A stretch of DNA of 64,000 bases from Paludibacteraceae bacterium (GTDB lineage: Bacteria; Bacteroidota; Bacteroidia; Bacteroidales; Paludibacteraceae). Where the stretch lies: the NCBI GenBank assembly GCA_017451525.1, contig JAFTOD010000002.1, forward strand, positions 190,964 through 254,963. The letters run 5' to 3'. Below the pieces are notes generated by a model, which was given only the letters and a program-made list of their open reading frames with translations, was not told where the DNA came from and searched no databases. This document shows positions 19,996 to 51,697 of the stretch, one piece after another; the stretch's first letter is position 1; the number at the start of each line of letters is the position of its first letter. The translations under genes were made by a program, and so were the position numbers.

Positions 19996-21285
19996 TTAAA
20001 ATAGTGATAATTGTTGCTGTCCAAATACTTGATACCCCACGTGACAATTAAAGCATAAATGTGGTTGGCAATAGTTTTGATAGAGGTGTATCAGTGCTTG
20101 TGTGTCGGCTGCGGAGCGAATATCTTGCCCCAGCATAGCCCATTTGCGAATGATTGTGTTATCCTCTTTGGGAATGTTGTCGAGCCATTCGATAGCGTCC
20201 TCTATATGTTGATGTTGGGTATATGCATATTTGTATGGTATCACCGTGTTGATAAGCAGGATTGCTATTGAGTTTTTTCCTAATGGCAATGGGCGTTGTA
20301 CGCGATTGTACACGTCTTCATTATCGTATTGCAAACTCAATAATTCAAACATCTTTTCCGTTGATTGTGCTTCCATCAATTGAGCAAACAGGAATTCCGA
20401 TTGATATATCAAATGTGCGAACTGCCTGATACGTACTTCAGGCGCATTTTGTGGACGCATGCGCGCTCTCTTCCACATGCTTGCTTCTATTGGTTGGAGC
20501 GAGAACTTCTTTTGTAGGAAGCAGTACTCCTCCCATAATCCTTGCTCCTGGCTCCTTGCTCCTTGTTCTTTGTTCCTTGCTCTTGGCTCCAACAACCCCG
20601 ATTGCCCGAGCAGGATAGCAGTCAACTGAAAAAGGCTATTTCTGTGTTTTTGCAAGCATGATAGTGGCGTCGCCAATGCTAATGCTTCAAATGGCAGCCC
20701 GTTGGTGTGAAAACCGAAGTTATGTGCCAAACTGATGTAGAACGCATGCGCCCAGCTCTGCTGCGTGATACCAAGTAGTTGAGTGATGGATTGGCGTTTA
20801 CATTCCAATCGTTGTTCTAATAAATTCTTTTTCCAGTCTTGCGTGAGCAGGGTAGGGTTCTCCAGCAATTGCTTGCCACAATCTGGTATGCCAGACAAGG
20901 ATGCGTGCCATTCTGTGGAGTGAAGCAGTTGCGTGAGATAGTCTTGCCCATGCGGATATTGCAGTTCGCATTGTGGGAGGCGTTCCCCGCGCGTGTTGCA
21001 TACCTCTTTATCTGCTTTGGCTACTACGTGTAAGATGGTGTTGTCGTATGCAGCATCCATATGATGGCGATGCTTATACCAGTCGGAAGCACATACATGT
21101 ATCTCTATGTTTCCCACCCAGTCTTGTCCATCAATGCGAATATGTGCATTGCTGAAATCTGGTCCTGCATGTATGTTGTATTGCCCTACAGACACAACTT
21201 CAACAGGCTTTCCATCTGTTGTTGTTTGCGGAAAACCTGCCCAAATGCGCTTTTGCCATATGTAATGCAGCAGTATTTCTGGCAT
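19996..21285 (-). CDS. DUF2851-family protein
   Basis: The N-terminus LLHYIWQ...GPDFSNAHIRIDG..WVGNIEIH matches my memory of DUF2851. It contains a low-complexity insert (see the repeat at 20540-20590). Confidence 0.75.
   Translation of the reverse strand: MPEILLHYIWQKRIWAGFPQTTTDGKPVEVVSVGQYNIHAGPDFSNAHIRIDGQDWVGNIEIHVCASDWYKHRHHMDAAYDNTILHVVAKADKEVCNTRGERLPQCELQYPHGQDYLTQLLHSTEWHASLSGIPDCGKQLLENPTLLTQDWKKNLLEQRLECKRQSITQLLGITQQSWAHAFYISLAHNFGFHTNGLPFEALALATPLSCLQKHRNSLFQLTAILLGQSGLLEPRARNKEQGARSQEQGLWEEYCFLQKKFSLQPIEASMWKRARMRPQNAPEVRIRQFAHLIYQSEFLFAQLMEAQSTEKMFELLSLQYDNEDVYNRVQRPLPLGKNSIAILLINTVIPYKYAYTQHQHIEDAIEWLDNIPKEDNTIIRKWAMLGQDIRSAADTQALIHLYQNYCQPHLCFNCHVGYQVFGQQQLSLF
20540..20590. 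repeat. CCTTGCT/CCTGGCT-type low-complexity repeat inside the DUF2851 gene
   Basis: CCTTGCTCCTGGCTCCTTGCTCCTTGTTCTTTGTTCCTTGCTCTTGGCTCC encodes ..PRARNKEQGARSQEQG.. on the minus strand. Confidence 0.75.
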
Positions 21286-21311: not shown

Positions 21312-21395
21312 CTACTTTTTTTTTATTCTACCAAAAAATACCATTTTTTTCTATTCCTATATTTAATTTTCTATCATTTTGTACCTCACTTTCCG

Positions 21396-21430
21396 ATTCT
21401 TAATTCATAATTCAAAATTCTTAATTCTTA
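21396..21430. repeat. AATTC-word repeat (ATTCTTAATTCATAATTCAAAATTCTTAATTCTTA)
   Basis: 21408-21427 is an exact 20-nt inverted copy of 61189-61208. A partial copy lies at 47382-47395. Confidence 0.8.
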
Positions 21431-21450
21431 CCTGTCTTTTCCTTGTCAAT

Positions 21451-21494
21451 TACGTAGGATATACGTACCATATACGTAGGATATACGTAGGATA
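21451..21494. repeat. 4 x 11-bp tandem repeat TACGTAGGATA (second unit is TACGTACCATA)
   Basis: Read directly from the sequence. Each unit contains the palindrome TACGTA, and the period is 11 bp. Confidence 0.9.
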
Positions 21495-21837
21495 ATCGAG
21501 TTGTTAACCTGAGAATACCCTATCTTCTTCTTATCTTCCCCCTGCCATCCCCCTGTCTCTTTCTGCTTCCTTTCTCGTTACCACTTCGAAACCACTTCGT
21601 TGCCACTCCATTGCCATCCAGTACTTTCCCCGTATCCAGCTACCTATCCTCCGCTCGGCTTCCTAATATCCTCCACCTCCAGCGCAGCAACCTACCAACT
21701 ACAGGCGCACAGCGCCGATCTACAGCGAAGCGAACTACCACCTGTCACCCGCCACCTGTTTAGTGCTCGGCGATAACCCGCCGAGCAAAAAAACACAAGA
21801 AAATGCGATTTTTCTTGCACATTTGCAAATTTTTCAC

Positions 21838-21845
21838 TACCTTTG
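21838..21845 (+). promoter_or_regulatory. -7 box (TACCTTTG) driving RNA copy 1 and the LRR gene
   Basis: Matches TAnnTTTG, with TTCTTGC/TTTGC upstream. Confidence 0.6.
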
Positions 21846-21849
21846 CAAC

Positions 21850-22159
21850 CGCAAACCCAAAGTTTGCAGACATATTATTAAAAGCGTTTACTACGGGGTC
21901 CTCATAATTTTAAGCAATGGGGTGTCCTCAGCGCTTGTTTTGGCTTCCTGAAACTTGGAAACTTTCAATCTATCCAAAACAAGAAGGCAGTAAACGCCCT
22001 TATGGGATATGTATATCCCGCCCGCAGAGCGTCCTTCGTGGACTGCTCTGTTTGGTGGCATTTCATATTCGGCGTGGGCGTTGCTTGCTTGTTCTTATAG
22101 ATAAGGTATTCCAAGACCTCAGGAAGAAGAATAAGCAATGGTAAGGTTCCACGCTTTTT
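21850..22159 (+). ncRNA. Candidate structured RNA, copy 1 (leader or sRNA, family unidentified)
   Basis: It starts just after a TACCTTTG -7 box, and the ORFs inside are short and not conserved with copy 2. Hairpins lie at 21851-21867, 22004-22019 and 22025-22050. A stem pairs 22081-22096 with 22124-22138, and the element ends in a T-run at 22155-22159. It is collinear with copy 2, with compensatory helix changes. Confidence 0.5.
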
Positions 22160-22209
22160 CTATATTTACGGGCAGTCAGGAGCCAACTCCCACACAAAAA
22201 CAAACAAGT

Positions 22210-23925
22210 ATGAAACGAATTTTTACTTTCTTTTTTGCGCTATTGAGCGCATGCACATTCTCTACGTATGCAGCCATTATCGATGGCACCTGCGGTGATA
22301 ACCTCACTTGGACACTCAACACCAAGGATAGCACCTTAACGATCTCAGGTACGGGAAATATGACTTACTCCTCACCATGGTTCGATTACAGATCCTACAT
22401 CAAGTATGTCATCCTTCCTGATGGTCTTACGAGTATTGGAGACAATGCGTTCAGTGGTTGCTCTTCTCTCTCCTCTATCACCATCCCTAACAGCGTAACG
22501 AGTATTGGAGATTATGCGTTCATTCATTGCTCTAGTTTGACTTCTGTGACTCTCGGCAATAGCGTAACAAGTATTGGAAAGGAGGCGTTCAAAGATTGCT
22601 CAGGTTTGACTTCCATCACTATTCCTAACAGCGTAACGAGTATTGGAGAGAATGCGTTCTATTATTGCTCTAGTTTGACTTCTGTGACTCTCGGCAACAG
22701 CATAACGACTATTGAATATGGTACGTTCTCTAAATGCTCTAGTTTGACTTCTGTGACTCTCGGCAATAGCGTAACAAGTATTGGAAAGGAGGCGTTCAGA
22801 GATTGCTCAAGTTTGACTTCCATCACTATCCCTAACAGCGTAACGACTATTGGATATAGGGCGTTCCAATATTGCTCAAGTTTGACTTCTGTCACTCTCG
22901 GCAACAGCGTAACAAGTATTGAAGCTGATGCGTTCTATAGGTGCGAAAATTTGACTTCCATTACCATCCCAAACAACGTAACGAGTATTGGAGATTATGC
23001 GTTCAGTGCTTGCTGGAGTTTGACTTCTGTGACTCTCGGCAAAAATCTTACGAGTATTGGATGGGAGGCGTTCCAACATTGCAGCAGCATCCGAGAAGTA
23101 ACTGCTTTCATGCCTACACCACCTGCGGCTGTAAACTGTGGTCTAAATCCCGCTGCTGTAACTCTTTACGTTCCTGCAGAATATCTTGAAGCATATCAAA
23201 ATGCAGTATGGTGGGAAGATTTCAAAAAAATCCGCGCTATTGGTTCGGATTGGGATGTTGAGTTCGTAGATTGGGATGGTACCATCCTTGCTACAATGAA
23301 AGTGCCTAATGGCGAAGCCGCTACCGCACCTGCTGATCCTACTCGCGAGGGATACACTTTCATCGGTTGGGATAAGGACTTCAGCCATGTGACCGACCAC
23401 ATGACTGTCACAGCACAATACCAAATCAACCGCTACCGCGTGCGTTTCTTCGACTACGACAATACGCTCCTCAAGACAGACTCCGTAGAATATCAAGCTG
23501 CTGCTACAGCCCCTGCTAATCCATACCGCGAGGGATATACCTTTATCGGTTGGGATCAAGAGTTTGATTCCATCACAGCGGACTTGGATGTATATGCGCA
23601 ATACGAGTTTGGTGAAGACTGTGACATGACCATCGTCTTTACCAATAGCGAGGATAATGACAGCGAAATTTATAGTCAATCACTCACAATCAAGGTGCCT
23701 GCTGCACCAGATATTGAGGGCTTTACTTTCCTTGGTTGGCAACCAGTGGCTACATTAATCACAGATACTATCACCATCCAAGCAATCTACGAAGCAGACA
23801 TCCCATCATCCGCTCCAGAGGTATATGTCAATCCTGCTAACCCAGCACAAAAACTCCTCCGCAATGGTCAAGTTTACATTCTGCAAGACGGCAAGACCTA
23901 CACCATCACAGGACAGAAGCTATAA
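22210..23925 (+). CDS. BspA-like leucine-rich-repeat surface protein with Listeria-Bacteroides-type repeats and a T9SS-like C-terminal tail
   Basis: Signal peptide MKRIFTFFFALLSACTFSTYA. It has at least 12 LRR units of about 23 aa (IPNSVTSIGxxAFxxCSSLTSV) and three GYTFIGWD-type repeats. The C-terminus is LLRNGQVYILQDGKTYTITGQKL. I prefer ATG 22210 to the longer 22138 model. Confidence 0.85.
   Translation: MKRIFTFFFALLSACTFSTYAAIIDGTCGDNLTWTLNTKDSTLTISGTGNMTYSSPWFDYRSYIKYVILPDGLTSIGDNAFSGCSSLSSITIPNSVTSIGDYAFIHCSSLTSVTLGNSVTSIGKEAFKDCSGLTSITIPNSVTSIGENAFYYCSSLTSVTLGNSITTIEYGTFSKCSSLTSVTLGNSVTSIGKEAFRDCSSLTSITIPNSVTTIGYRAFQYCSSLTSVTLGNSVTSIEADAFYRCENLTSITIPNNVTSIGDYAFSACWSLTSVTLGKNLTSIGWEAFQHCSSIREVTAFMPTPPAAVNCGLNPAAVTLYVPAEYLEAYQNAVWWEDFKKIRAIGSDWDVEFVDWDGTILATMKVPNGEAATAPADPTREGYTFIGWDKDFSHVTDHMTVTAQYQINRYRVRFFDYDNTLLKTDSVEYQAAATAPANPYREGYTFIGWDQEFDSITADLDVYAQYEFGEDCDMTIVFTNSEDNDSEIYSQSLTIKVPAAPDIEGFTFLGWQPVATLITDTITIQAIYEADIPSSAPEVYVNPANPAQKLLRNGQVYILQDGKTYTITGQKL
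22534..22857 (+). repeat. Near-identical intragenic DNA repeats (207-bp period, equal to 3 LRR units) within the LRR gene
   Basis: 22534-22640 and 22741-22847 differ at only a few positions. Confidence 0.85.
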
Positions 23926-23958
23926 CGCCCCTCCCTTGCAGATTATTGTATAACCCAA

Positions 23959-23992
23959 GAGCGACACCCTTTTTGCGGTGCCGCTCTTTTTT
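23959..23992 (+). terminator. Intrinsic terminator after the LRR gene
   Basis: GAGCGACACC-CTTTTTGC-GGTGCCGCTC (one mismatch) followed by T6. Confidence 0.7.
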
Positions 23993-24217
23993 AGGGATTT
24001 AACGGTGCTATTGTTTCTCTGTACTAACGATTCGATTTTGCTGCTAATGGATTCTCGCGCGTGCGCGTCGTATGTGAAAGGTGTAATGTGACAAAATAGG
24101 TATAAATGCCCTAAATTTGCGATTTAAGGGCATGAGAGTAAAAAATCGGGGTTACTGCCAAAATGAAGAAAAATGCAAAAAAACGCTTAAAAATTTGCAC
24201 ATATCAAAAAAATGTTG

Positions 24218-24243: not shown

Positions 24244-24308
24244 CTGAAACTCTGAAACTTTGAAACAAGCGACTAAGTCGCATGAAACCTTGAAACTTTT
24301 AAAACTTT
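24244..24308 (+). repeat. TGAAACT-word repeats flanking a GC hairpin (GCGACTAAGTCGC) in the gyrA leader
   Basis: CTGAAACTCTGAAACTTTGAAACAAGCGACTAAGTCGCATGAAACCTTGAAACTTTTAAAACTTT. Confidence 0.8.
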
Positions 24309-24314
24309 ATATAG

Positions 24315-26873
24315 ATGATTGACAACGACAGAATTATTCCTGTAAAGATTGACGAGGAAATGCGAACCTCGTACATCGATTACTCGATGAGTGTGATTGT
24401 AGCCCGCGCATTGCCTGACGTGCGCGATGGCTTCAAGCCAGTACACCGCCGTGTGCTGTTTGGTATGAACGAGTTGGGCAACACAAGTGACAAGCCAACC
24501 AAGAAATCCGCACGTATCGTGGGTGAGGTAATGGGTAAGTACCACCCTCACGGCGATAGCAGTATCTATGGCACACTGGTGCGTATGGCACAGCCATGGA
24601 ACATGCGCAACGTGTTGGTGGACGGACAAGGTAACTTCGGCTCAATCGACGGCGACGGTGCAGCAGCCATGCGTTATACCGAAGCACGCCTTTCGAAACT
24701 CGCCGAAGAGATGCTTCGCGATATAGACAAAGATACCGTGGATATGCAACTGAACTTCGACGACTCGCTCCGCGAGCCAGTGGTATTGCCATGTCGCTTC
24801 CCTAACCTGCTGGTGAACGGAGCAAGCGGTATCGCAGTAGGTATGGCAACGAACATGCCAACCCACAACTTGGGCGAGGTAATCGACGGTTGCGTGGCAT
24901 ACGTGAAGAACGCAGTGGCGCGTGTGGAGAATCCCGAAGTGGAGCCAATCACCGTGGCGGAGCTCATGGAGCACATCAAAGCGCCTGACTTCCCAACGGG
25001 TGGTACTATCTACGGTTACCAAGGCGTGCGCGACGCGTATGAGACAGGTCGCGGACGTATCATCATCCGTTCGAAAGCAGAAATCGAGACCGAAGACAAC
25101 GGTCGCGAGCGTATCGTGATTGGCGAGTTGCCATATGGTGTGGTGAAGTCTGACCTCGTGAAGAATATCGCTGACCTCGTAAACGATAAGAAGATCGAAG
25201 GTATCTCGGGTATCAGCGACCAATCCAAACGCGATGTGCGTATCATTATCGAAATCAAACGCGATGCTAATGCACAAGTAGTGCTGAATAAACTCTACAA
25301 ATACACCGCACTCCAATCCAGCTTCTCAGTGAACAGCATTGCGCTCGTAAAGGGTCGTCCACAACTCTTGAACCTCCACGACATGGTGGCGAACTTCATC
25401 GAGCACCGTATGGAGGTAGTAGTACGCCGCACAAAGTTCGAACTCAAGAAAGCCGAAGAACGTGCGCATATATTAGAAGGATTGATCATCGCCGTAGATA
25501 ACATCGACGAGGTGGTGAAGATTATCCGTGCAAGCCGTACCCCTGCTGACGCGCAAGCGAACTTGGAGGCACGCTTCAGCTTGGATAACCTGCAATCGAA
25601 AGCCATCGTAGATATGCGCCTCTCACAACTCACAGGTTTGCGTATTGACGAGTTGAAAGAGGAATATGCTAAGTTGCAAGAGTTGATTCAACACTTGAAT
25701 GCGCTGCTCGCAAGCGAGGTGATGCGCTACGAAGTGATTGAAAACGAACTAGTAGAAATAAAAGAGAAGTATGCCGATGAGCGTCGTACACGTATCATCA
25801 AGATGGCTACCGAGTTCAACCCAGAGGATATGTATGCCGACGATGATATGGTCATCACTATCTCTCACTTGGGTTATATCAAACGTACTCCATTGGCAGA
25901 CTTCCGTCAGCAAGGACGTGGTGGTATCGGTGCTAAAGCAGGTGCTGCCCGCGATGAAGACTTTATCGAATACGTACACCAAGCCAATATGCACTCCACC
26001 ATGATGTTCTTCACCGAGCAAGGTCGCCTCTATTGGACAAAGGTATATGAATTGCCAGAGGGCAACCGCCAGTCGAAGGGACGTGCGTTGCAAAACATGA
26101 TCAATATCCAAAAGGGTGACAAGGTTTGCGCATTCATACATGTGAAGAACCTCAGCGATATGGAGTATGTACAAAATCATTACCTCATCTTCGCAACGAA
26201 GAATGGTTTGATGAAGAAGACTACTCTCGAATCCTACAGCCGTCCACGTGCCAATGGTATTATCGCGCTTGGCTTGCGTGAGGATGACCGCTTGATTCGC
26301 GTGACCCTCACCGATGGCAATAGTCAAATGTTGGTGGCTTCGTACAATGGTAAAGTGGTTCGCTTCCCAGAAGACACCGTTCGCCCAATGGGTCGTACCG
26401 CAACAGGTGTGCGTGCTATCAAATTGGACGAAGATGGCAAGGATCGCGTGATTGGTATGATTTGCGTAGAGCAAGGTAGCAAAGACTCTGTCCTCGTCAT
26501 CTCTGAAAAGGGCTTTGGCAAGCGCACATTGCTTGACGATGAGAATGGCGAACCAATCTATCGTATCACCAACCGTGGCGGTAAGGGCGTGAAGACTATG
26601 AATATCACCGATAAGACGGGCAACCTGATAGGTCTTGAGGCTGTTAACGATGATATGGATCTCATGCTTATCACCAAGGCGGGTACTGCTATCCGTATGG
26701 CAATGGATGCAATTAGTGTACTTGGTCGCGCTACACAAGGTGTGAAACTTATTGAACTTCAAAAGCGCAACGATACGCTCATGTTCGGTTGCACCGTACC
26801 AAAAGAGGAGCAAGAGGAAGTGGCTGAATCCGAAGAAGTAACAACTGAAGAAACGACCACTACCGAAGAGTAA
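24315..26873 (+). CDS. gyrA: DNA gyrase subunit A
   Basis: YIDYSMSVIVARALPDVRDGFKPVHRRVL, AAMRYTEARL (active-site Tyr region) and a C-terminal beta-pinwheel. It ends in an acidic tail. Confidence 0.98.
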   Translation: MIDNDRIIPVKIDEEMRTSYIDYSMSVIVARALPDVRDGFKPVHRRVLFGMNELGNTSDKPTKKSARIVGEVMGKYHPHGDSSIYGTLVRMAQPWNMRNVLVDGQGNFGSIDGDGAAAMRYTEARLSKLAEEMLRDIDKDTVDMQLNFDDSLREPVVLPCRFPNLLVNGASGIAVGMATNMPTHNLGEVIDGCVAYVKNAVARVENPEVEPITVAELMEHIKAPDFPTGGTIYGYQGVRDAYETGRGRIIIRSKAEIETEDNGRERIVIGELPYGVVKSDLVKNIADLVNDKKIEGISGISDQSKRDVRIIIEIKRDANAQVVLNKLYKYTALQSSFSVNSIALVKGRPQLLNLHDMVANFIEHRMEVVVRRTKFELKKAEERAHILEGLIIAVDNIDEVVKIIRASRTPADAQANLEARFSLDNLQSKAIVDMRLSQLTGLRIDELKEEYAKLQELIQHLNALLASEVMRYEVIENELVEIKEKYADERRTRIIKMATEFNPEDMYADDDMVITISHLGYIKRTPLADFRQQGRGGIGAKAGAARDEDFIEYVHQANMHSTMMFFTEQGRLYWTKVYELPEGNRQSKGRALQNMINIQKGDKVCAFIHVKNLSDMEYVQNHYLIFATKNGLMKKTTLESYSRPRANGIIALGLREDDRLIRVTLTDGNSQMLVASYNGKVVRFPEDTVRPMGRTATGVRAIKLDEDGKDRVIGMICVEQGSKDSVLVISEKGFGKRTLLDDENGEPIYRITNRGGKGVKTMNITDKTGNLIGLEAVNDDMDLMLITKAGTAIRMAMDAISVLGRATQGVKLIELQKRNDTLMFGCTVPKEEQEEVAESEEVTTEETTTTEE

Positions 26874-26897
26874 TATGAACCAAGCGCCAACGGCGCG

Positions 26898-26924
26898 TGA
26901 AACTTTGAAACTTTTTAAACTTTT
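26898..26924 (+). repeat. TGAAACT-word repeat between gyrA and the TPR gene
   Basis: TGAAACTTTGAAACTTTTTAAACTTTT. Confidence 0.75.
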
Positions 26925-26931
26925 AATAAAT

Positions 26932-28600: not shown

Positions 28601-28682
28601 CACTAATACAGTAGCGGCTCTGCCGCGTTCACTAAACACTAAACGCTAAACACTAAACACTAAACGCTAAACACTAAACACA
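28601..28682 (+). repeat. CACTAAA-family element: one hairpin unit plus 7 tandem heptamers (CRCTAAA)
   Basis: CACTAATACAGTAGCGGCTCTGCCGCGTTCACTAAA, then 7 x CACTAAA/CGCTAAA at 28630-28678. It fills the whole ruvX-def spacer. Confidence 0.9.
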
Positions 28683-29230
28683 TGATATTACCAATATATT
28701 TATACGGTCAACCTGTGTTGCGCAAACCCACAGAAGACATTACTCCCGAATCGCTTGACCTCAAGCAACTTCTTGCTGATATGTGGGATACGCTTGCTGT
28801 AGCTGAGGGTTGTGGATTGGCTGCACCGCAGATTGGCAAATCCATCCGATTGTTTATTGTGGATGGTACTGAATTGGCAGAAGATTATCCTGAGTGTCAG
28901 GATTTTAAGAAGGTCTTTATCAATCCAGAGATTATCGAGGAAAGCGAAGATGATGCCACTTTCTCTGAGGGCTGTCTTTCGTTGCCTGGTATATCCGAGA
29001 ATGTTATCCGTCCTGCTAGCATTACGATTCGCTACATGGATGAGAACTTCACAGAACATACAGAGACCTATGATGGTTTTGCTGCGCGCATTATTCAGCA
29101 CGAGTATGATCACTTGGAGGGGCATGTCTTCACCGACCGTATTTCGCCTATCCGTCGTCAGTTCGTTAAGACCAAACTCACAAATATCGCCAAAGGCAAA
29201 GTAGCCGCTCGCTATCGCACCAAACGCTAA
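28682..29230 (+). CDS. def: Peptide deformylase
   Basis: Motifs GLAAPQIG, EGCLSLPG and QHEYDHLEG. Confidence 0.95.
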   Translation: MILPIYLYGQPVLRKPTEDITPESLDLKQLLADMWDTLAVAEGCGLAAPQIGKSIRLFIVDGTELAEDYPECQDFKKVFINPEIIEESEDDATFSEGCLSLPGISENVIRPASITIRYMDENFTEHTETYDGFAARIIQHEYDHLEGHVFTDRISPIRRQFVKTKLTNIAKGKVAARYRTKR

Positions 29231-29300
29231 ACACTAAACAGTAGCACAGCGTTCACTAAACACTAAACAGTAGCGCCCCAGGCGCGTTCACTAAACACAA
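29225..29300 (+). repeat. CACTAAA-family element (two hairpin units) between def and mntP
   Basis: CTAAACACTAAACAGTAGCACAGCGTTCACTAAACACTAAACAGTAGCGCCCCAGGCGCGTTCACTAAACA. It overlaps the def stop codon. Confidence 0.9.
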
Positions 29301-29303
29301 AGT

Positions 29304-29870
29304 ATGTCAATACTTACCATCATACTCCTAGCTATTGGCTTAGCCATGGACTGTTTTGCAGTTTCTGTGTGCAAGGGATTGACTTCGCCGCATGGTTATG
29401 TGCCTCGCTATATCAAACCCATGCTCATGGCATTGCTCTTCGGCGTGTTCCATGCGGGCATGCCGCTGATTGGCTATTTCGCGGGCAGTCTGTTTGCTTC
29501 GTTCTTCGAGCGCTTTGCGCCATGGATAGCACTGCTATTGCTTGGTTTTATTGGTGGTAAGATGATCTACGACTCGTTGAAGGAGGACAATGATGAAACG
29601 CATTTAGCCGATTTCTCCTTCTTGGGGTTATTGTCGTTGGCATTCGCTACATCAATGGATACTTTGGCTACTGGAGTAATCTTCATCCCTCATCCAGAGG
29701 TGTTGTGGATAGCTGTGGGCATTATAGCAGCGACATGTTTCTTGTTTTCCATGACAGGTTTTGTGATTGGTCATTTAGTAGGCACTCGCCTGAGAATGAA
29801 TGTAACAATCCTCGGTGGAGTGATACTTATTCTTATCGGTATAAAAATCTTCCTCGAAGGAATCCTATAA
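29304..29870 (+). CDS. mntP: Manganese efflux pump MntP
   Basis: 188 aa with 6 TM and an N-terminal AIGLAMDCFAVS motif. Confidence 0.85.
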   Translation: MSILTIILLAIGLAMDCFAVSVCKGLTSPHGYVPRYIKPMLMALLFGVFHAGMPLIGYFAGSLFASFFERFAPWIALLLLGFIGGKMIYDSLKEDNDETHLADFSFLGLLSLAFATSMDTLATGVIFIPHPEVLWIAVGIIAATCFLFSMTGFVIGHLVGTRLRMNVTILGGVILILIGIKIFLEGIL

Positions 29871-30499: not shown

Positions 30500-31815
30500 T
30501 TACAATAGGCGATGAATTGCTGATAGGGCAAGTGGTGGATACCAACTCGGCATGGATGGCAGAGCGACTTAATGAGGCGGGGATTGAACTCTACCAAATC
30601 ACATCTGTGCACGATGACCGAGAACATATACTGAAGGCATTAGACGAAGCCTTCTCGCGTGCAGATATTGTGCTGACTACGGGAGGACTGGGCCCTACGA
30701 AAGATGATATTACCAAGCATGTCATGTGTGAGTATTTTTGCACTACACTGGTGGAAGATTCGCGCGTGCGTGAGCATATACACGAGTTGTATAAGGAGCG
30801 ACCTGATGTGCTCAATCGCTTGACTGCTACCCAATGGCTCGTTCCCGAGAGTGCGAAGATTTTGACCAATAGAGTAGGTAGTGCACCGATTATGGTGTTT
30901 GAGAATGAGGTTAAAGGTGAGAGGTTAAAGGTTAGAGGCGAGGGACAAAATTCAAAATTCCTCATTGCCATGCCTGGTGTTCCTCACGAAATGAAGATTG
31001 CCATGAGGGAGCAGGTGATGCCGTTTTTAGAGTTTAGAGAACGCTCGCAGAGCGAGCTACAGAACGGCGCAAGCGCCTACAGTTTAGAGGCGAGAGGTGA
31101 GATTATTCATCGCACGATGATGTTGTATGGCATAGCGGAATCGACATTGGCACTAAAAATAGAAGAATGGGAGAATGCTCTGCCCCAATCAATGCATTTG
31201 GCATACTTGCCCAAGGATGGCATTATTCGTCTGCGATTGAGTAGTTATGGCGAAGCAACAAAAGAAGAAATAGAGCAGCAATTAGCCAATCTCAAGCCAT
31301 TGATAGCAGGCAATCTGATAGCCACCGAAGATTTGCCTTTAGAAACGATATTGGGCAATCAACTCAAAGCGCGTCATCAGACTATTGCCACAGCAGAGAG
31401 TTGCACAGGTGGCCGTTTGGCAGCCGCACTCAATGCGCAGTCGGGCTCATCGGCATACTATATGGGTTCGGTAGTGGCATACGATAATCGTATCAAGGAG
31501 CAAGTGCTGGGCGTGAAGCATAGTACATTGGAAAAATATGGTGCGGTAAGCGAACAGACTGTGCGTGAGATGGCTGAAGGTGTACGCGCACTAATGAACA
31601 CGGATTATGCAATTGCCACATCAGGTATAGCTGGCCCAACAGGCGGAACACCAGACAAGCCCGTAGGTACAGTATGGATAGCATGGGCTACACCCGATGG
31701 TACAGTGGCAGAGTGTTATCACTTTGGTGTTGCGCGTGAACGCGAACAAATCACCCAGCGTGCAGTCACTGCTGCTTTGGTAGAACTAATCAAATCACTA
31801 AACACTAAACAATAG
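30484..31815 (+). CDS. cinA: CinA-family protein (MoCF-binding domain plus nicotinamide-nucleotide amidase PncC domain) carrying two repeat-derived in-frame inserts
   Basis: MRAEIITIGDELLIGQVVDTNSAWM and TTGGLGPTKDDIT in the N domain. The C-terminal domain has ATAESCTGG and SGIAGPTGG. It overlaps the preceding gene by 16 nt. Confidence 0.9.
   Translation: MRAEIITIGDELLIGQVVDTNSAWMAERLNEAGIELYQITSVHDDREHILKALDEAFSRADIVLTTGGLGPTKDDITKHVMCEYFCTTLVEDSRVREHIHELYKERPDVLNRLTATQWLVPESAKILTNRVGSAPIMVFENEVKGERLKVRGEGQNSKFLIAMPGVPHEMKIAMREQVMPFLEFRERSQSELQNGASAYSLEARGEIIHRTMMLYGIAESTLALKIEEWENALPQSMHLAYLPKDGIIRLRLSSYGEATKEEIEQQLANLKPLIAGNLIATEDLPLETILGNQLKARHQTIATAESCTGGRLAAALNAQSGSSAYYMGSVVAYDNRIKEQVLGVKHSTLEKYGAVSEQTVREMAEGVRALMNTDYAIATSGIAGPTGGTPDKPVGTVWIAWATPDGTVAECYHFGVAREREQITQRAVTAALVELIKSLNTKQ
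30907..30960. repeat. GGTTAAAGG/AATTCAAAATTC word repeat inside cinA
   Basis: GAGGTTAAAGGTGAGAGGTTAAAGGTTAGAGGCGAGGGACAAAATTCAAAATTC encodes EVKGERLKVRGEGQNSKF. Confidence 0.75.
31026..31090 (-). repeat. CACTAAA-family-like element (two hairpin units, reverse orientation) inside the cinA reading frame
   Basis: The reverse complement reads CCTCTAAACTGTAGGCGCTTGCGCCGTTCTGTAGCTCGCTCTGCGAGCGTTCTCTAAACTCTAAA. It has the same word-GTAG-hairpin-GTTC-word layout as the intergenic copies. Confidence 0.75.
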
Positions 31816-31839
31816 CCCGCAGGGCGTTCACTAAACACC
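31796..31839 (+). repeat. CACTAAA-family element (one hairpin unit) between cinA and the transporter gene
   Basis: CACTAAACACTAAACAATAGCCCGCAGGGCGTTCACTAAACACC. It supplies the last cinA codons and the stop. Confidence 0.9.
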
Positions 31840-31843
31840 AAAT

Positions 31844-33505
31844 ATGGAATATATACGCGAATTGTTTTTAATACCTTCGGTGACGCAATCTATAGTGTTG
31901 CTCACGTTGGTTGTATGCCTTGGTCTGTGGGCAGGGGAACATCTGCGTATCAAAAACTTCTCGTTGGGTATCACGTGGATACTGTTTGTGGGTATTATCT
32001 TCTCGTCTTTTGGCATTACGATTGACCCACAAGTAAGCCATTTCGCCAAGAACTTCGGACTGATACTCTTTGTCTATTCCATCGGTTTGCAAGTTGGACC
32101 TTCCTTCTCACCCTTTGGCAAGAGTGGTTTGCGATTGAATATGTTGGCAGTGGCAATCGTGTTGCTGGGTTGTGGTATTACCATCGCTCTGCACTATATC
32201 ACAGGTATTGAGATGACGACTATGGCGGGTATCATGTCGGGTGCGGTGATGAATACCCCTTCGCTGGGTGCAGTGCAACAGACGGCAGCAGATATGATGG
32301 GTGAAGTGTCGCCCGATATTGCGATGGGTTATGCTTTGGCTTATCCGCTCAGTATCGTGGGTTTGATATTGTCGTTTGAGTTGATACGTTTTTGCTGCCG
32401 TGTGAACTTGCGTGAAGAGGATGCTAAATTGCGCGAGGAACATGTGTCGGATGATGATCCTATTTGCGTGGATATTCGTTTATCGGTGGCTTCTGCCATT
32501 ACGTTGAAAGAGTTGCATGCCCTGTGTGGTGTGGATAATCTGTTGGTGAGCCGTGTGACTCGTGCAGATGGTCGCGATGAACTGGTGGATGGTAGTACTG
32601 TATTGTATCCCAATGATGTGATTCGTATCGTGAGTGATAAGCGTCATGAGAAAGACTTGCAGGTATTAGGTGAGGTGACGCATTACGGTTTTCGTGGTCG
32701 AGAACGCTCCGACCACTTGATTTCGCGCCGCGTGGTGGTTACTCGCACGGAGTGTAATGGCAAACGCTTGAGCACTTTTGACGTGCGCCACCGCTATCAT
32801 GCTACTATCACACGTATCAATCGTGCGGGTGTAGAGTTGTTGGCAACTCCAGATTTCGTATTGCAACTGGGCGACCGTATCATGGTGGTGGGCGATAAGG
32901 AAGATGTGCGCCATGTGGCGGAGATGTTTGGTAATGAGCTCAAGCGTTTGGACTTGCCTAACTTGATGCCCATCTTCTTTGGCATCTTCTTGGGTGTATT
33001 GTTGGGCTCTCTGCCAATTGCGATACCAGGTATGAATCAATCGTTTAAGTTGGGCTTGGCAGGTGGCTCGCTGATTGTGGCGTTGCTGATTGGTCGTTTT
33101 GGTCCGTATTATAGTATGGTGACATTTGCTACGACAAGTGCCAATATGATGTTGCGTCAGGTGGGTTTAACAATGTTTTTGGCAGCAGTGGGCTTGAGTG
33201 TAGGTGATGGCTTCGTGAATACCATTTTGAATGGCGGCTATATGTGGGTAGTGTATGGTGTGCTGATTACCATGATACCGCTCGTAGTAGTAGGTTTGAT
33301 AGCGTATAAAGGAATGCAGATCAACTTCTTTAAGGTGGTAGGTTTGCTGATAGGTGCGATGACTGGTGCTCCAGCCTTAGGTTATGCGGAGCGTCTTTCT
33401 TCGCACAACGACCAAGCGTCGGTGGTATACGCTACGGTATATCCGTTGACGATGTTTCTTCGTGTGATGGGAGGGCAATTGCTAGTATTGTTATTCTGCC
33501 ACTAA
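31844..33505 (+). CDS. YidE/YbjL-type putative transporter (AAE family) with two central TrkA-C/RCK_C domains
   Basis: 553 aa with 5-6 TM, then two soluble repeats (VTRADGRDELVDGSTVLYPNDVIRIV and ITRINRAGVELLATPDFVLQLGDRIMVVG), then 5-6 TM. Confidence 0.85.
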   Translation: MEYIRELFLIPSVTQSIVLLTLVVCLGLWAGEHLRIKNFSLGITWILFVGIIFSSFGITIDPQVSHFAKNFGLILFVYSIGLQVGPSFSPFGKSGLRLNMLAVAIVLLGCGITIALHYITGIEMTTMAGIMSGAVMNTPSLGAVQQTAADMMGEVSPDIAMGYALAYPLSIVGLILSFELIRFCCRVNLREEDAKLREEHVSDDDPICVDIRLSVASAITLKELHALCGVDNLLVSRVTRADGRDELVDGSTVLYPNDVIRIVSDKRHEKDLQVLGEVTHYGFRGRERSDHLISRRVVVTRTECNGKRLSTFDVRHRYHATITRINRAGVELLATPDFVLQLGDRIMVVGDKEDVRHVAEMFGNELKRLDLPNLMPIFFGIFLGVLLGSLPIAIPGMNQSFKLGLAGGSLIVALLIGRFGPYYSMVTFATTSANMMLRQVGLTMFLAAVGLSVGDGFVNTILNGGYMWVVYGVLITMIPLVVVGLIAYKGMQINFFKVVGLLIGAMTGAPALGYAERLSSHNDQASVVYATVYPLTMFLRVMGGQLLVLLFCH

Positions 33506-33512: not shown

Positions 33513-33590
33513 TTTATAGCTTATAGTTAATCCGCAACGATATTGTTGCCCGACATATTTAATATAGCGTTATAAGCCAAAACCCTCACT

Positions 33591-33626
33591 GCCATTTATG
33601 CAAAATCCGCATAAATGGCATTTTTA
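33591..33626 (+). terminator. Intrinsic terminator after the transporter gene
   Basis: GCCATTTATGC-AAAATCC-GCATAAATGGC followed by ATTTTTA. Confidence 0.7.
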
Positions 33627-33672
33627 TTTGCACAATTCTTGCTCAATTCTTGCTCAATTCAAAATAATTCAC

Positions 33673-33680
33673 TACCTTTG
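33673..33680 (+). promoter_or_regulatory. -7 box (TACCTTTG) driving RNA copy 2
   Basis: Matches TAnnTTTG. The upstream TTCTTGCTCAATTCAAAATAATTC cassette is shared with 7248-7272. Confidence 0.6.
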
Positions 33681-33685
33681 CACCC

Positions 33686-33979
33686 GTAATCAGCCCACGC
33701 CTTGGGATTATGTCTTTCGGGTGGGATGGTTGCAGACATAATAAAGGCGTTAAAAAGCGCTTTGTGCTTGGCTACTTGGAATCTAGCAAATTTCTTCTAT
33801 ACCCAACACATAGCAGCATTTTGATGTCCTCGGGATATGTAATCTATATCCATACACACTATTGATAGGTGTGTATGTGTGGTACATATCGGCGTGGGCT
33901 CAATGTTGTTTGTTCGGGTATAAAGGCAATGCTAGAGCCTCAAGTAGCGGAACAGCAACAATGCAGTCCCGCTTTTTTT
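33686..33979 (+). ncRNA. Candidate structured RNA, copy 2 (leader or sRNA, family unidentified)
   Basis: It starts just after a TACCTTTG -7 box and contains no ORF of 60 aa or more. A perfect 10-bp long-range helix pairs 33692-33701 with 33891-33900. Four further helices are present, and it ends AGCGG..CCGCT plus T7. Confidence 0.55.
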
Positions 33980-34086
33980 GTGTCGATATACAATATCTAA
34001 TTAACAAACAATAAATCAAATAATTAAACAACGGAGTAAGCCGAAAATCCGATGAAGAGTAGGCATAATAATTAAATTTATTTATT

Positions 34087-34989
34087 ATGAAAAAGTTTTT
34101 TTTCTTTTTTGCAGCACTATTAAGCGGTGTGCAGACTGTGTTTGCTCAAGCAGACTCTACTGCGGTTGAGATGGTAGAACAAACAACTAAAAGTGGGCAA
34201 GTAGGTGAGATTTTACTAGGTATTCTCATTCTGCTCGTTATGTTTGCTATTATTGGTCACATGGTTTATGAATTGTTTATTGTTAAAAAACCAAAGGCAC
34301 TTACTGTTGAAGAGTGTAAAGAGGCTCGTATGAATGCGGGATTGTCTCCTATGACCGAAGAAGAAGCACAAGAACTATTAAACAAAATGGTAGACGATAC
34401 TGAATCTTGGACTTCTTTTGTAAATGCGAACAATGAGGATGATAAAATAATCACTAAATATAGTCAAGCAAAGAAAACACGCCAAGTTTTGGAGGAAGTA
34501 GCAGCAAGCATGCCAGATAATTCTGATGTGGTAGAATGCTACAACTCATTATTGGAAATATACACAGAGTGCACAAAGCGTAAATACAATGCGAGTACAA
34601 CATATATAATCATCTCTGCAGTCTTAATGGTTGGTATGGCAATTTTGTCTGGGGCATATGAAGCGATTGCTTTTTGTGCAGTATCAGTTGGTATTTATAT
34701 AATGGCAAGTATGACACCTAATTATATCCTAATAAAAAAAGAACTAAAAGGCAGAAGAGGTCCTAAGTTCATGTCTGGATTTATTGCGGGTATTCTGGGT
34801 GGTGTTGCAACAGCAGAAACCGTAACTACAGTAACCAAATGGAGTGATGGAACAACCACGAAAGATGTAGATAATTCTAATTTCTGGATCTCTTTAATTT
34901 TGTCAATCGTTCTTTTTGTTGTATTGGCAATATTCATGTTCGTACTTGCGTTTATCAATTATTTACGCAACTATGTATTTCATTTTTAA
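34087..34989 (+). CDS. Hypothetical multi-pass membrane protein (AT-rich)
   Basis: 300 aa with a signal peptide, one TM, a charged helical soluble region and about 4 C-terminal TM helices. I recognise no motif. Confidence 0.6.
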   Translation: MKKFFFFFAALLSGVQTVFAQADSTAVEMVEQTTKSGQVGEILLGILILLVMFAIIGHMVYELFIVKKPKALTVEECKEARMNAGLSPMTEEEAQELLNKMVDDTESWTSFVNANNEDDKIITKYSQAKKTRQVLEEVAASMPDNSDVVECYNSLLEIYTECTKRKYNASTTYIIISAVLMVGMAILSGAYEAIAFCAVSVGIYIMASMTPNYILIKKELKGRRGPKFMSGFIAGILGGVATAETVTTVTKWSDGTTTKDVDNSNFWISLILSIVLFVVLAIFMFVLAFINYLRNYVFHF

Positions 34990-35013
34990 TCTCGAAAATA
35001 AATAATAGAAAAA

Positions 35014-35044
35014 AGAGTGTGTCGAATATAGATACACTCTTTTT
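35014..35044 (+). terminator. Intrinsic terminator after the AT-rich membrane protein gene
   Basis: AGAGTGTGTCGAATATAGATACACTCT followed by TTTT. Confidence 0.75.
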
Positions 35045-35124
35045 ATATATAGAATGCTAATACTACGTAGATAAGAAAACATAACGCCACCGTTATGACA
35101 TAGATAAGCGGCGGATAAGTTCTA

Positions 35125-35166
35125 GTGGTCACAAAGCGGTTACGAAGCCCACAGGTAACTTAAGAG
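35125..35166 (+). repeat. Diverged 42-bp direct repeat, copy 1
   Basis: GTGGTCACAAAGCGGTTACGAAGCCCACAGGTAACTTAAGAG matches 35230-35271 at 33 of 42 positions, and most differences are transitions. Confidence 0.65.
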
Positions 35167-35229
35167 AAATCTAAGTTGAAGCAAATTTAGCCCACAGAAA
35201 GCCCACCGAAGTCCTAGAGATCTCCTATG

Positions 35230-35271
35230 GTGGTCGCGAAGTGGTCACGTAGCCCGCAGTCAACTTGAGAG
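35230..35271 (+). repeat. Diverged 42-bp direct repeat, copy 2
   Basis: GTGGTCGCGAAGTGGTCACGTAGCCCGCAGTCAACTTGAGAG. Confidence 0.65.
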
Positions 35272-35342
35272 TGTTTATTCGCGAAATGGGATAAAAATAC
35301 GATTTTCGCCATTTATCTCTTGTAGGTATCACAAAATTATTG

Positions 35343-35350
35343 TACCTTTG
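35343..35350 (+). promoter_or_regulatory. -7 box (TACCTTTG) for the SDR/PPTase genes
   Basis: Matches TAnnTTTG, 58 nt upstream of the ATG. Confidence 0.55.
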
Positions 35351-35408
35351 CAGCGAAAAAGTACGAGTTAATGCTCGAATGTTCACAGTCTAAAGTCAAA
35401 GAAAATAT

Positions 35409-36176
35409 ATGTACGCACTAATCACGGGAGCTAGTTCGGGGTGTGGGTATGAATATGCCCGAATAATGGCACAAAAAGGATACAAACTACTCATAGTCAG
35501 CAATGAAGAAGCAATACACGACAAAGCACTGCTTCTTCGCCAAGATTTTGGTGTGGAGGTGGTTTCGTTGGTTCGCAATTTGGGAGTACAAGATGCTGCC
35601 AAAGAATTGTATGACTATTGCAAGGCAGCAAACATACAAGTAGAAGTACTCATCAACAACGCAGGGGTATATCACGATTGCGATTTCTTGGCAGATTCTG
35701 AGGGATTTAACCAATTGATATTCAATCTTCATATGCATACACCCGCTATGTTGATGTACTATTTCGCTCAAGACATGGTCCAACGTGGCAAAGGATATAT
35801 CCTCAATATGTGTTCAATCACTGCGGATATTGCCGTACAACGTTTGAGCACCTATGGTGCAACCAAAGCATTTTTGAGCAACTTCACCCGTTCGGTGCAT
35901 ATCGAATTGAAGGAGAAGGGAGTATATGTGACCAACGTCACCCCAGGAGCTATCAATACGGGATTATATAATATCCGTCCGTGGTTGACGAAGATGGGCT
36001 TGTTGTTGGGGTATATCGTACAACCTGATTATTTGGCTCGTCGTGGAGTGAATGCCATGTTCCGTGGGCGTGCTAAAGTGACGGTGCCTGCGTTGTGGAA
36101 TCATATCTTGCTTTTCTTGGTGGCACTGATACCTACATGTATGCTGCGCCTGATTCGTAAGTTAAGACTCTTCTAA
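35409..36176 (+). CDS. SDR-family oxidoreductase
   Basis: TGASSGCG cofactor motif, NNAG and a YxxxK region (YGATKAF). Confidence 0.88.
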   Translation: MYALITGASSGCGYEYARIMAQKGYKLLIVSNEEAIHDKALLLRQDFGVEVVSLVRNLGVQDAAKELYDYCKAANIQVEVLINNAGVYHDCDFLADSEGFNQLIFNLHMHTPAMLMYYFAQDMVQRGKGYILNMCSITADIAVQRLSTYGATKAFLSNFTRSVHIELKEKGVYVTNVTPGAINTGLYNIRPWLTKMGLLLGYIVQPDYLARRGVNAMFRGRAKVTVPALWNHILLFLVALIPTCMLRLIRKLRLF

Positions 36177-51078: not shown

Positions 51079-51663
51079 ATGGATGAGGTGTTTGTTCATG
51101 AATCCTCTTATGTGGATGAGGGGTGTTTTATAGGGAGAGGCACTAAGATTTGGCATTTCTCGCATGTGATGTCGGGTTGTCAGATAGGTGAAGATTGCAA
51201 TATAGGTCAGAATGTGGTAGTGTCGCCTGGTGTAATACTTGGTCGCAACTGCAAGGTGCAGAATAATGTATCTATCTATACGGGTGTGCGCTGCGGTGAT
51301 GATGTTTTTTTGGGGCCCAGTATGGTGTTTACCAATGTGATCAATCCTAGGTCAGCAGTATCTCGTAAGGATGAGTATAAGGACACATTTATTCGTCGTG
51401 GTGCTTCAGTGGGTGCCAATGCAACTATCGTATGTGGTAACACGTTGGGCGAATACTGTCTTATCGGTGCAGGTTCGGTGGTAACAAAGGACGTGCCTGC
51501 GTATGCGCTCATGGTAGGTAATCCTGCGCGCAGAGTTGGGTGGGTAAGTCGCCACGGTGAGAAGCTAAAGTTTGATAAAGATGGTCTTGCTACCTGTCCC
51601 GCCACAGGCGAGAAATATCAATTGGTCAATGATTTGTGTCAATTAATCGATTCTAAACACTAA
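51079..51663 (+). CDS. Left-handed beta-helix N-acetyltransferase (WlbB/WbpD-like amino-sugar acetyltransferase)
   Basis: Hexapeptide repeats throughout, plus VHESSYVDEGCFIG..TKIWHFSHV, which is typical of the WlbB type. Confidence 0.75.
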   Translation: MDEVFVHESSYVDEGCFIGRGTKIWHFSHVMSGCQIGEDCNIGQNVVVSPGVILGRNCKVQNNVSIYTGVRCGDDVFLGPSMVFTNVINPRSAVSRKDEYKDTFIRRGASVGANATIVCGNTLGEYCLIGAGSVVTKDVPAYALMVGNPARRVGWVSRHGEKLKFDKDGLATCPATGEKYQLVNDLCQLIDSKH

Positions 51664-51697
51664 ACAGTAGCCCGCTTGCGGGCGTTCACTAAACATT
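51653..51697 (+). repeat. CACTAAA-family element (one hairpin unit) between the acetyltransferase and DUF4293 genes
   Basis: CTAAACACTAAACAGTAGCCCGCTTGCGGGCGTTCACTAAACATT. It supplies the last codons and the stop. Confidence 0.9.

Follow-up and report, generated by a model that had tools for sequence, protein, structure and literature searches.

Portable leader RNAs with a candidate attenuator architecture precede accessory surface-protein genes in gut Bacteroidales

The window analysed here, a stretch of 64,000 nucleotides (nt) from a Paludibacteraceae bacterium (assembly GCA_017451525.1, contig JAFTOD010000002.1, forward-strand positions 190,964 to 254,963), contains two copies of a non-coding RNA of about 300 nt. 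Each copy lies between its own promoter and a gene for an exported or membrane protein, and each gene ends in a terminator. We refer to these arrangements as module 1 (window positions 21815-23996) and module 2 (33590-35049), and to the protein genes as cargo 1 and cargo 2. The RNA is a previously uncatalogued family. We consider it fairly probable, though well short of settled, that the RNA is a portable cis-acting transcription-attenuation leader that switches between a terminating and a read-through fold. The layout of promoter, RNA, exported or membrane protein gene and terminator in both modules had been proposed from the sequence in an original prediction, and it was borne out by sequence, folding, open reading frame (ORF) and family searches.

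The two leader copies are homologous, and the blocks GGGATATGTA and TCGGCGTGGGC are common to both. We call the second block, an 11-nt segment, BOX. With the profile of the leader family, nhmmer recovered copy 2 at E = 9e-73 and copy 1 at E = 1e-59, and with a 98-sequence profile it found no third copy in the window. When the window and 18 related loci were searched against Rfam 15 with cmscan at the gathering score, no match to the ~300-nt leader was obtained, and the only hit was a different motif, DUF805b (see below). At E <= 10, cmscan returned only noise on both leader copies, with scores of 26 bits or less, far below the threshold of each family. No description of the ~300-nt RNA turned up in literature searches.

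Family members were collected by two scans; family-wide counts in this text cover the matches listed by these scans, and the totals are lower bounds. The canonical scan, with the pattern GGGATATGTAN{35,65}TCGGCGTGGGC (21 exact bases) against one genome per species from 185k species genomes, gave at least 115 stretches. Among them, 110 are from Bacteroidales or were confirmed by nhmmer, and 5 are chance matches (Paenibacillus, Verrucomicrobiales, two Streptomyces and a Bacillota metagenome-assembled genome, MAG). The chance matches L081, L082 and L110 are retained in some counts, and only L081 supplied a protein. The variant scan, run on metagenome contigs with the pattern CATAYCNGCGTHGG...TTGYTTRTT, gave at least 120 stretches, 116 of them confirmed as family members. 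Together the scans yield at least about 226 true leader copies, and single MAGs hold up to 5 of the exact-pattern leaders listed, which makes at least 5 copies per genome. The family is large and not the small regulon first proposed. The named hosts among the matches listed are nearly all Bacteroidales, mostly Paludibacteraceae MAGs from the guts of ruminants and other herbivores; further hosts among these matches are Prevotellaceae, Paraprevotella, Sodaliphilus, Muribaculaceae and one Bacteroidaceae MAG. Upstream of the conserved block, at a distance of 100-200 nt, a TAnnTTTG box is found in 110 of 118 copies with full flanks, and a run of at least 5 T begins 70-89 nt after BOX TCGGCGTGGGC in 97 of the same 118. 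Trimmed leader units have a mean length of 298 nt. In a 43-sequence alignment, A2, two subtypes are distinguished by the 5' hairpin P1, which is long in type A (as in copy 2) and short in type B (as in copy 1); the more distant members of A2 come from other families.

Both copies in the window are predicted to fold far more stably than shuffled controls, with z = -8.8 for copy 2, whose minimum free energy (MFE) is -126 kcal/mol, and z = -7.3 for copy 1. The 5' end of copy 2 is predicted from the promoter, and the U-run TTTTTTT at 33973-33979 is taken as its 3' end. RNAalifold on A2 gives a long rod and a hairpin, P2, with double-sided changes at 18 of the 42 predicted pairs. The lower rod helix (A2 columns 181-200 with 375-394) is paired in 99% of cells, with compensatory changes at 12 of 15 pairs. 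Helix 3:4, formed by GUUGCUUGUUC just after BOX and the complementary GAAC(A)AGCAAC near the 3' end (A2 columns 347-357 with 397-407), is paired in 95.9% of cells, and 6 of its 11 pairs are compensatory; one pair, for example, occurs as GC in 26 members, AU in 11 and GU in 3, and another as UA in 15 and CG in 7. None of 500 shuffles reached the observed pairing score, and helices slid by 1-3 columns pair at only ~40%. The lower rod helix and helix 3:4 cross each other, and helix 3:4 overlaps rod pairs, so these helices must belong to alternative folds or to a pseudoknot. G-U pairs are frequent in the covarying helices (e.g., UG in 31 against UA in 11), which fits an RNA read from one strand and not a DNA inverted repeat.

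The 3' domain, from BOX to the U-run, folds on its own into a single long hairpin (-35.3 kcal/mol in copy 2 and -36.2 kcal/mol in copy 1). In this hairpin, BOX pairs with a segment that we call TAIL directly before the U-run, an arrangement typical of intrinsic terminators. Across the family, the mean energy of the 3' domain is -36.8 kcal/mol, compared with -23.9 kcal/mol for shuffled sequences. BOX:TAIL pairing closes the domain at the U-run in 73 of 98 canonical members and in 58 of 62 members of a variant clade, type C. In the full-length MFE structure, BOX stays on R5, its partner on the side of the rod, in 95 of the 98 and 58 of the 62, respectively.

A third potential partner of BOX, named E5, is a perfect BOX complement of 7-11 nt that roughly half of the canonical members carry within the 5' strand of P1. 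The best E5:BOX duplex has a mean of 6.9 Watson-Crick pairs, compared with 4.3 for shuffled sequences. In copy 2, E5 is sequestered within P1 by a BOX-like mimic at 33719-33727. The type C clade allows the three pairings to be compared, since its BOX reads GCGUAGG, with A at position 5 where the canonical BOX has G. Opposite this position, TAIL has C in 98 of 98 canonical members and U in 57 of 58 type C members. R5 has C in 65 and U in 8 of the 98 canonical members and U in 56 of 58 type C members, and E5 has C in 53 and U in 10 canonical members and U in 39 of the 42 type C members with an E5. The variant BOX pairs with its own TAIL at -9.0 kcal/mol, compared with -5.6 kcal/mol for canonical tails and -5.4 kcal/mol for shuffled ones. 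All three alternative BOX pairings appear, from these sequence comparisons, to be under selection. One MAG (JAZSAI) holds four canonical leaders (L033, L038, L047 and L059) together with a type C leader, L059:4477-4730, a divergent member found by nhmmer (BOX CCAGCGTAGG, E5 CCTACGCTGG, R5 GCCTA, TAIL CTACGC). Because both BOX classes coexist in one genome, the identity of BOX is more likely to matter for pairing within the molecule than for recognition by one trans factor. We also considered a pairing of TAIL with the 5' strand of P2 in place of BOX and rejected it: in A2 it holds in L065 and is broken in L009 and L014, and BOX:TAIL is intact in all three.

The genes around the leaders point to an action in cis. 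The gene after the leader is co-oriented with it at 108 of 111 canonical loci and 70 of 72 type C loci, while the gene before it is mixed in strand (68 plus and 38 minus at canonical loci). A median of 57 nt (quartiles 44 and 88) separates the U-run from the start codon, and a TAnnTTTG promoter box is present in only 5 of 96 of these spacers. Because the spacers are short and promoter boxes are few, the cargo genes are apparently transcribed by way of the leader. A wide range of cargo is represented, with 107 proteins in 54 homology groups. Signal-peptide-like N-termini, called by a crude N-terminal heuristic, are found in 62% of the downstream proteins and in 20.5% of other genes at the same loci (Fisher p ~2e-15); in the independent type C set, 47 of 67 cargo proteins (70%) look exported. 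The leading Pfam families are LRR_5, LRR_8, Flg_new, DUF4988, collagen repeats, Lcl_C, WG_beta_rep and DUF3575, and trypsin-like and subtilase proteases, Por_Secre_tail and VWA also occur. The description of the cargo as envelope proteins does not extend to every gene, since the cargo includes some glycosyltransferases, one M42 peptidase and some small proteins without a signal peptide. With this reservation, co-orientation, short promoterless spacers and enrichment in exported proteins uphold the original prediction of a shared cis-regulatory RNA ahead of accessory envelope genes. A conserved leader peptide was considered and rejected, as a 51-residue ORF at 33710-33865 is broken in other members by indels that are not multiples of 3, and members with a short P1 have no ATG.

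Neither module is a fixed feature of its site. Relatives for synteny were found through the transporter gene upstream of module 2 and the DUF2851 gene upstream of module 1. Module 2 is absent in L126, a locus of a Paludibacteraceae MAG that has leaders elsewhere (L002, L077 and L084); the transporter and SDR genes, which flank module 2 in the window, are separated there by only 34-40 nt. Module 1 is likewise missing from L131, which has flanks of 95-96% nucleotide identity and gyrA next to DUF2851. The prediction of accessory modules thus withstood a search for universal conservation. At these empty sites the RNA, the cargo and extra flanking sequence are missing together, with no terminal repeats at the junctions. 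No flanking repeats or target duplications are common to both modules, and none are present at the indel junctions. The neighbouring genes, both in the window and in the relatives examined, include no recombinase, integrase or transposase, in line with the earlier remark that no recombinase accompanies either module.

Other relatives differ at the module-2 site in other ways. L127 and L128 have a different arrangement there. In the close relatives L117, L122 and L123, an AAA_14/DUF4143 ATPase gene (432 residues) lies between the 300-residue ORF of cargo 2 and the SDR gene, and this insertion marks the module-2 site as an insertion hot spot. L124 was examined as a possible case of the same leader with different cargo at this site and was rejected, as its 895-residue Flg_new protein follows a different leader with no match to the family. 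At L124:6663-7360, after the transporter gene, we observed this CHB_HEX_C_1/Fn3_assoc/Flg_new surface protein with its own promoter, another leader of ~200 nt and GGTTACCA-type words upstream.

The leader and its cargo are also separable across the family. Homologous cargo is found in 13 of 22 leader pairs that are at least 95% identical and in 13 of 119 pairs that are 90-95% identical, which agrees with the proposal of a modular unit with different cargo. Between leaders that are at least 88% identical, similarity begins at a median of 11 nt upstream of the RNA start, around the promoter, and ends at a median of 4 nt after the U-run. These sharp bounds and the unrelated cargo indicate that the stretch from promoter through U-run is a discrete portable unit. 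It is plausible that cargo is shuffled by homologous recombination between leader copies. The cis-regulatory and modular-unit readings are compatible, and in view of the gene context and the leader-cargo comparisons both hold.

Table 1 Features of the two modules and their flanks, in window coordinates.
Feature	Position	Strand	Evidence or remark
DUF2851 gene	19996-21285	minus	neighbour before module 1
Module-1 indel vs L131	21327..24050		180 unrelated nt in place; blastn, gene table
Promoter, leader copy 1	21815..21845	+	TTG ... TACCTTTG
Leader RNA copy 1, type B (short P1, no E5)	21850..22159	+	optional hairpin in P2
Leader copy 1 elements	R5 21994-21999; BOX 22069-22079; helix 3 22085-22094; helix 4 22129-22138	+
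Leader copy 1 3' end	TAIL (CCACGC) 22149-22154; U-run 22155-22159	+
Cargo 1, BspA-type leucine-rich repeat (LRR) / Listeria-Bacteroides-repeat surface protein, signal peptide	22210..23925	+	Pfam LRR_5 1e-78, Flg_new
Terminator of cargo 1	23950..23996	+	sequence
gyrA	24315-26873		neighbour after module 1
Asp-Al_Ex/TrkA_C transporter gene	31844-33505		upstream neighbour of module 2
Module-2 indel vs L126	33499..35407		blastn of window vs L126, gene table
Intrinsic terminator of transporter gene	33590..33629	+	12-bp stem and T-run; terminator scan, sequence
Bacteroidetes-type promoter, leader copy 2	33650..33680	+	TTG at 33650, TACCTTTG at 33673-33680; repeat family D3/D7
Leader RNA copy 2, type A (long P1)	33685..33979 (~295 nt, non-coding)	+	folding, nhmmer, covariation
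E5 (AGCCCACGCC), 5' strand of hairpin P1 (33686-33733)	33692..33701	+	perfect BOX complement
Lower rod helix, 5' strand	33770..33788	+	partner 33930-33948
R5 (GTCC), rod-side BOX partner, then conserved block GGGATATGTA	33826..33841	+	RNAalifold pairs 240-243 with 336-339; block fixed by search pattern
BOX (TCGGCGTGGGC), 11-nt switching segment	33889..33899	+	pairs with R5, E5 or TAIL
Helix-3 strand (GTTGTTTGTTC)	33905..33915	+	partner 33950-33959 (predicted terminator fold) or rod 5' strand (predicted read-through fold)
Lower rod helix, 3' strand (33930-33948), then helix-4 strand GAACAGCAAC (33950-33959)	33930..33959	+
TAIL (GTCCCGC, BOX partner) and U-run of 7	33966..33979	+	3' half of the leader's intrinsic terminator
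DUF805b RNA motif (Rfam RF02914)	34031..34065	+	cmscan; between leader RNA and cargo 2 ORF
Cargo 2, 300-residue ORF	34087..34989	+	signal-peptide-like N-terminus, multiple hydrophobic segments
Terminator of cargo 2	35010..35049	+	inverted repeat I8: 14-nt arms, 93% complementary, then T-run
SDR gene	35409-36176		next gene after module 2

We propose the following mechanism for the leader. Transcription would start at the leader's own sigma-A-type promoter, and the nascent RNA would fold into a long imperfect rod, with BOX (UCGGCGUGGGC) on R5 and GUUGCUUGUUC on the 5' strand; this would be the read-through fold. As the last ~45 nt emerge, they could invade the rod, with GAAC(A)AGCAAC taking GUUGCUUGUUC (helix 3:4) and TAIL (CCC[A/G]CGC) taking BOX. 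The invasion would produce a hairpin of about -35 kcal/mol ending at the U-run, which would act as an intrinsic terminator and leave a stable RNA of ~300 nt. If the rod holds, or if BOX is captured by E5, which roughly half of the members carry, the polymerase would read into the promoterless cargo gene ~57 nt further on. E5, held in P1 by the BOX-like mimic, may form an optional third tier. The balance between the folds would presumably be set by a factor (protein, small ligand or RNA) at the conserved irregular internal-loop region GGGAUAUGUA...CAUAUCGGCGUGGGC. We infer both the conditional nature of termination and the trans factor.

Several observations weigh against this mechanism. According to RNAfold, the rod state lies ~10 kcal/mol below the 5' part plus the terminator domain, so that formation of the terminator could be a rare event; this figure does not allow for a pseudoknot, which might exist and would keep the lower rod helix. 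The full-length MFE structure also pairs the tail and the U-run with a 5' A-rich GGCG segment, and termination could therefore be constitutive. The BOX:TAIL stem of type A leaders has only 5 bp with a bulged U. The covariation of BOX is essentially a contrast between two clades and thus represents few independent events, and BOX itself was fixed by the search patterns. A broader reading is offered tentatively, as one that we doubt somewhat: the leader would be a new class of multi-state riboregulator, perhaps an orphan riboswitch or the target of a dedicated RNA-binding factor, that co-ordinately gates an accessory surface and adhesin regulon in rumen and hindgut Bacteroidales, and its promoter-to-terminator unit would also serve as a recombination handle for new surface genes.

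Metatranscriptome contigs include leader family members, some with the leader only and some running from the terminator region into downstream sequence. Contigs span the leader without the ORF in four RNA runs, and the ORF without the rod body in three metatranscriptomes. We note that this evidence consists of assembled contigs with unreliable depth, many of them from paralogues, and that the eight RNA runs gave no usable leader-to-ORF ratio or 3' ends.

Three other explanations account for part of these observations. It is unlikely, in our judgement, that the RNA is a stand-alone trans-acting small RNA (sRNA) gene family with a constitutive terminator, whose downstream genes are expressed by incidental leakage only. 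Such a family would explain the sharp bounds of the unit, from the promoter to a median of 4 nt past the U-run, as well as the strongly terminator-like 3' domain, the leader-only contigs in four RNA runs and the multiple copies, which are also seen in some sRNA families. It would not explain why the next gene is co-oriented at 108 of 111 and 70 of 72 loci while the upstream genes are mixed. Moreover, 91 of 96 cargo spacers have no promoter box, which leaves the cargo with no other visible means of expression, and the enrichment of exported proteins in the cargo suggests that leader and cargo are functionally connected. The attenuated leader may have a second role in trans. Elsewhere in the window there is a single BOX-complementary 8-mer, at 57696.

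The almost invariant orientation to the next gene also speaks against a selfish or passive portable repeat, similar to a miniature inverted-repeat transposable element (MITE) or a Correia element, that spreads between genes, supplies a promoter without conditional control and forms the rod as a by-product of its inverted repeats. The copy number of at least 5 per genome, the near-identical leaders ahead of unrelated cargo, the presence/absence variation of the modules and the overall hairpin shape are what such a repeat would produce. Against it stand the extensive compensatory changes, including G-U pairs, which indicate selection on RNA pairing in one strand, and the covariation of all three alternative partners with BOX. 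At the empty sites, RNA, cargo and flanks are missing as one block, and the junctions show neither target-site duplications nor terminal repeats; no transposase or recombinase is nearby. We regard this explanation as quite improbable. We give still less credence to a processing or stability element, in which the imperfect duplex of ~110 bp would be cleaved by RNase III or protect the 5' end, thereby setting the half-life or translation of the cargo mRNA, and the U-run would be no regulated terminator. That idea draws on the long, stable duplex (z = -7 to -9) and on the three metatranscriptomes in which the ORF is covered and the rod body is not, as if the leader had been cleaved away. However, the depth of metatranscriptome contigs is unreliable, and the idea does not account for helix 3:4 and BOX:TAIL, which covary, cross or replace pairs of the rod and finish exactly at a conserved U-run. 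We therefore retain the attenuation leader as the preferred reading.

The remaining features of module 2 largely match the original prediction. The terminator of the transporter gene insulates module 2 from upstream transcription. The predicted flanking terminators were found there and after both cargo genes; before module 1, a hairpin at 21759-21792 is followed by an A-run and not a T-run, and it is therefore no canonical plus-strand terminator. The promoter of copy 2 belongs to repeat families D3/D7, promoter-like repeats of the form TTG..TAnnTTTG that are dispersed across the window. The contents of module 2 are as described earlier, with the addition of the overlooked DUF805b motif, which scores 42.0 bits against a gathering score of 35.6, is full-length (1-35/35) and ends 22 nt before the ORF. 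Beyond the window, DUF805b was found in 1 of the 18 other loci scanned, L094 (2786-2820, minus strand), where it precedes a homologous 300-residue ORF. It is a second, gene-specific cis element in the 5' untranslated region (UTR) of cargo 2, separate from the ~300-nt leader family. The cargo 2 ORF matched no family in Pfam or NCBIfam, and protein family search detected no DUF805 domain in it. The DUF805b motif also occurs in other metatranscriptome contigs, where it stands directly after a promoter (a loose end at 34031 in run X3). The GC content of cargo 2 is 34-37%, compared with 44-51% for the surrounding genes, which confirms that it is richer in AT than its neighbours. An identical cargo 2 protein is present in 46 blocks of the sequence collection, of which 23 contigs were examined. 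The non-coding spacer at 35045-35407 after module 2, which lies inside the indel, contains GTGGTCAC..AAGC word repeats.

In module 1, 50 nt separate the leader U-run from the start codon of cargo 1, and this gap contains no promoter box. The protein has partial NCBIfam matches to LRR adhesins, and seven tandem 69-nt (23-residue) LRR repeat units, 65-84% identical, lie at 22360-23073 within its gene; they are likely a substrate for repeat-number variation. The optional hairpin of ~40 nt in the P2 loop (ACGGGGUCC.C ... GGGGUGUCC) is found at 21892-21930 in the window and in L011, L012, L055 and L100. Conservation of its sequence across type A and type B leaders suggests an add-on module. A pyrimidine-rich spacer of ~490 nt (21327-21815, GC skew -0.41) precedes the module-1 promoter and is part of the indel missing in L131; within the spacer, ACCACTTCG-like words are found, as is an 11-nt tandem repeat, TACGTAGGATA, at 21451-21494.

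Two further repeats were observed elsewhere in the window. A 56-nt repeat (TGAAACAAGCG.CTAAG..GC.TGAAAC.TTGAAACTTTT.AAACTTT), 80% identical between its copies, lies at 24261-24316 just before gyrA and at 26876-26931 before the next gene, which encodes a TPR protein, and may be a shared 5' element of these genes. In addition, CACTAAAC words with short GC-rich hairpins (e.g., AGTAGCGCCCCAGGCGCGTTCACTAAACAC) are found at the gene junctions 28608-28690, 29218-29306, 31789-31846 and 51644-51681; judged by their letters, these junction elements are an intergenic repeat family.

In cultured Bacteroides, the known controls of surface genes are invertible promoters and NusG-like antiterminators. Little is understood of how surface-protein repertoires are regulated in the uncultured Bacteroidales, which are dominant in the guts of ruminants and other animals. 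If termination at the leader is conditional, the family would represent a new RNA-based regulon and an orphan sensor for adhesin-like, lipoprotein and envelope-biosynthesis genes. The portable promoter-to-U-run unit suggests how accessory surface genes may come under common control. The leader family is also ready for inclusion in RNA databases and in the annotation of MAGs.

Several known systems share features with the leader. Correia elements and MITE-like repeats are multi-copy, intergenic, hairpin-forming and promoter-carrying, and lie beside variable genes. The leader has the same properties; unlike these repeats, it has a fixed orientation, deeply diverged copies with compensatory changes and a built-in terminator. 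A mobile repeat of this kind was rejected as an identification on account of the fixed orientation, the G-U covariation and the lack of terminal inverted repeats or target duplications at the junctions. An integron-type gene cassette was rejected as well, as the modules have no conserved flanking repeat in common and no integrase or recombinase is found among the neighbours. DUF805b is a short cis-regulatory hairpin motif; with 35 nt and a restriction to one ORF family (in the window and L094), it stands outside the ~300-nt leader family.

Cyclic di-GMP (c-di-GMP) riboswitches (GEMM-I/II) are a case in which one RNA class precedes many unrelated surface and adhesion genes per genome and thereby defines a regulon. 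The leader likewise heads many unrelated surface genes, but it has no sequence or structure match to them (cmscan E <= 10), differs in architecture and is much larger. The EAR, put and UpxY/LoaP leaders or systems act by processive antitermination at surface-polysaccharide or structure loci, where they suppress downstream terminators. By analogy, the leader heads surface loci and may act on termination; it differs from them in containing a switchable terminator itself, in having no adjacent NusG paralogue and in lacking sequence similarity.

In its predicted working the leader is like attenuators of the riboswitch, T-box and PyrR type, which also lie in the 5' UTR and have mutually exclusive pairings around one segment, with one fold forming a terminator just before the gene. 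As in these attenuators, the leader is followed by a co-oriented promoterless gene, and the 5' half of its terminator alternatively pairs upstream, with both sets of pairs covarying. A T-box leader proper was rejected, as there is no Rfam T-box match and no T-box sequence or specifier loop, and the downstream genes encode surface and membrane proteins. The leader is similar to T-box leaders in its size of ~300 nt, and its E5 with the BOX mimic in P1 resembles the anti-antiterminator tier of three-tier attenuators of the PyrR type. Unlike known terminator/antiterminator leaders, it has three partners for BOX and its own promoter, is multi-copy and portable, and precedes heterogeneous accessory surface genes instead of the genes of one pathway.

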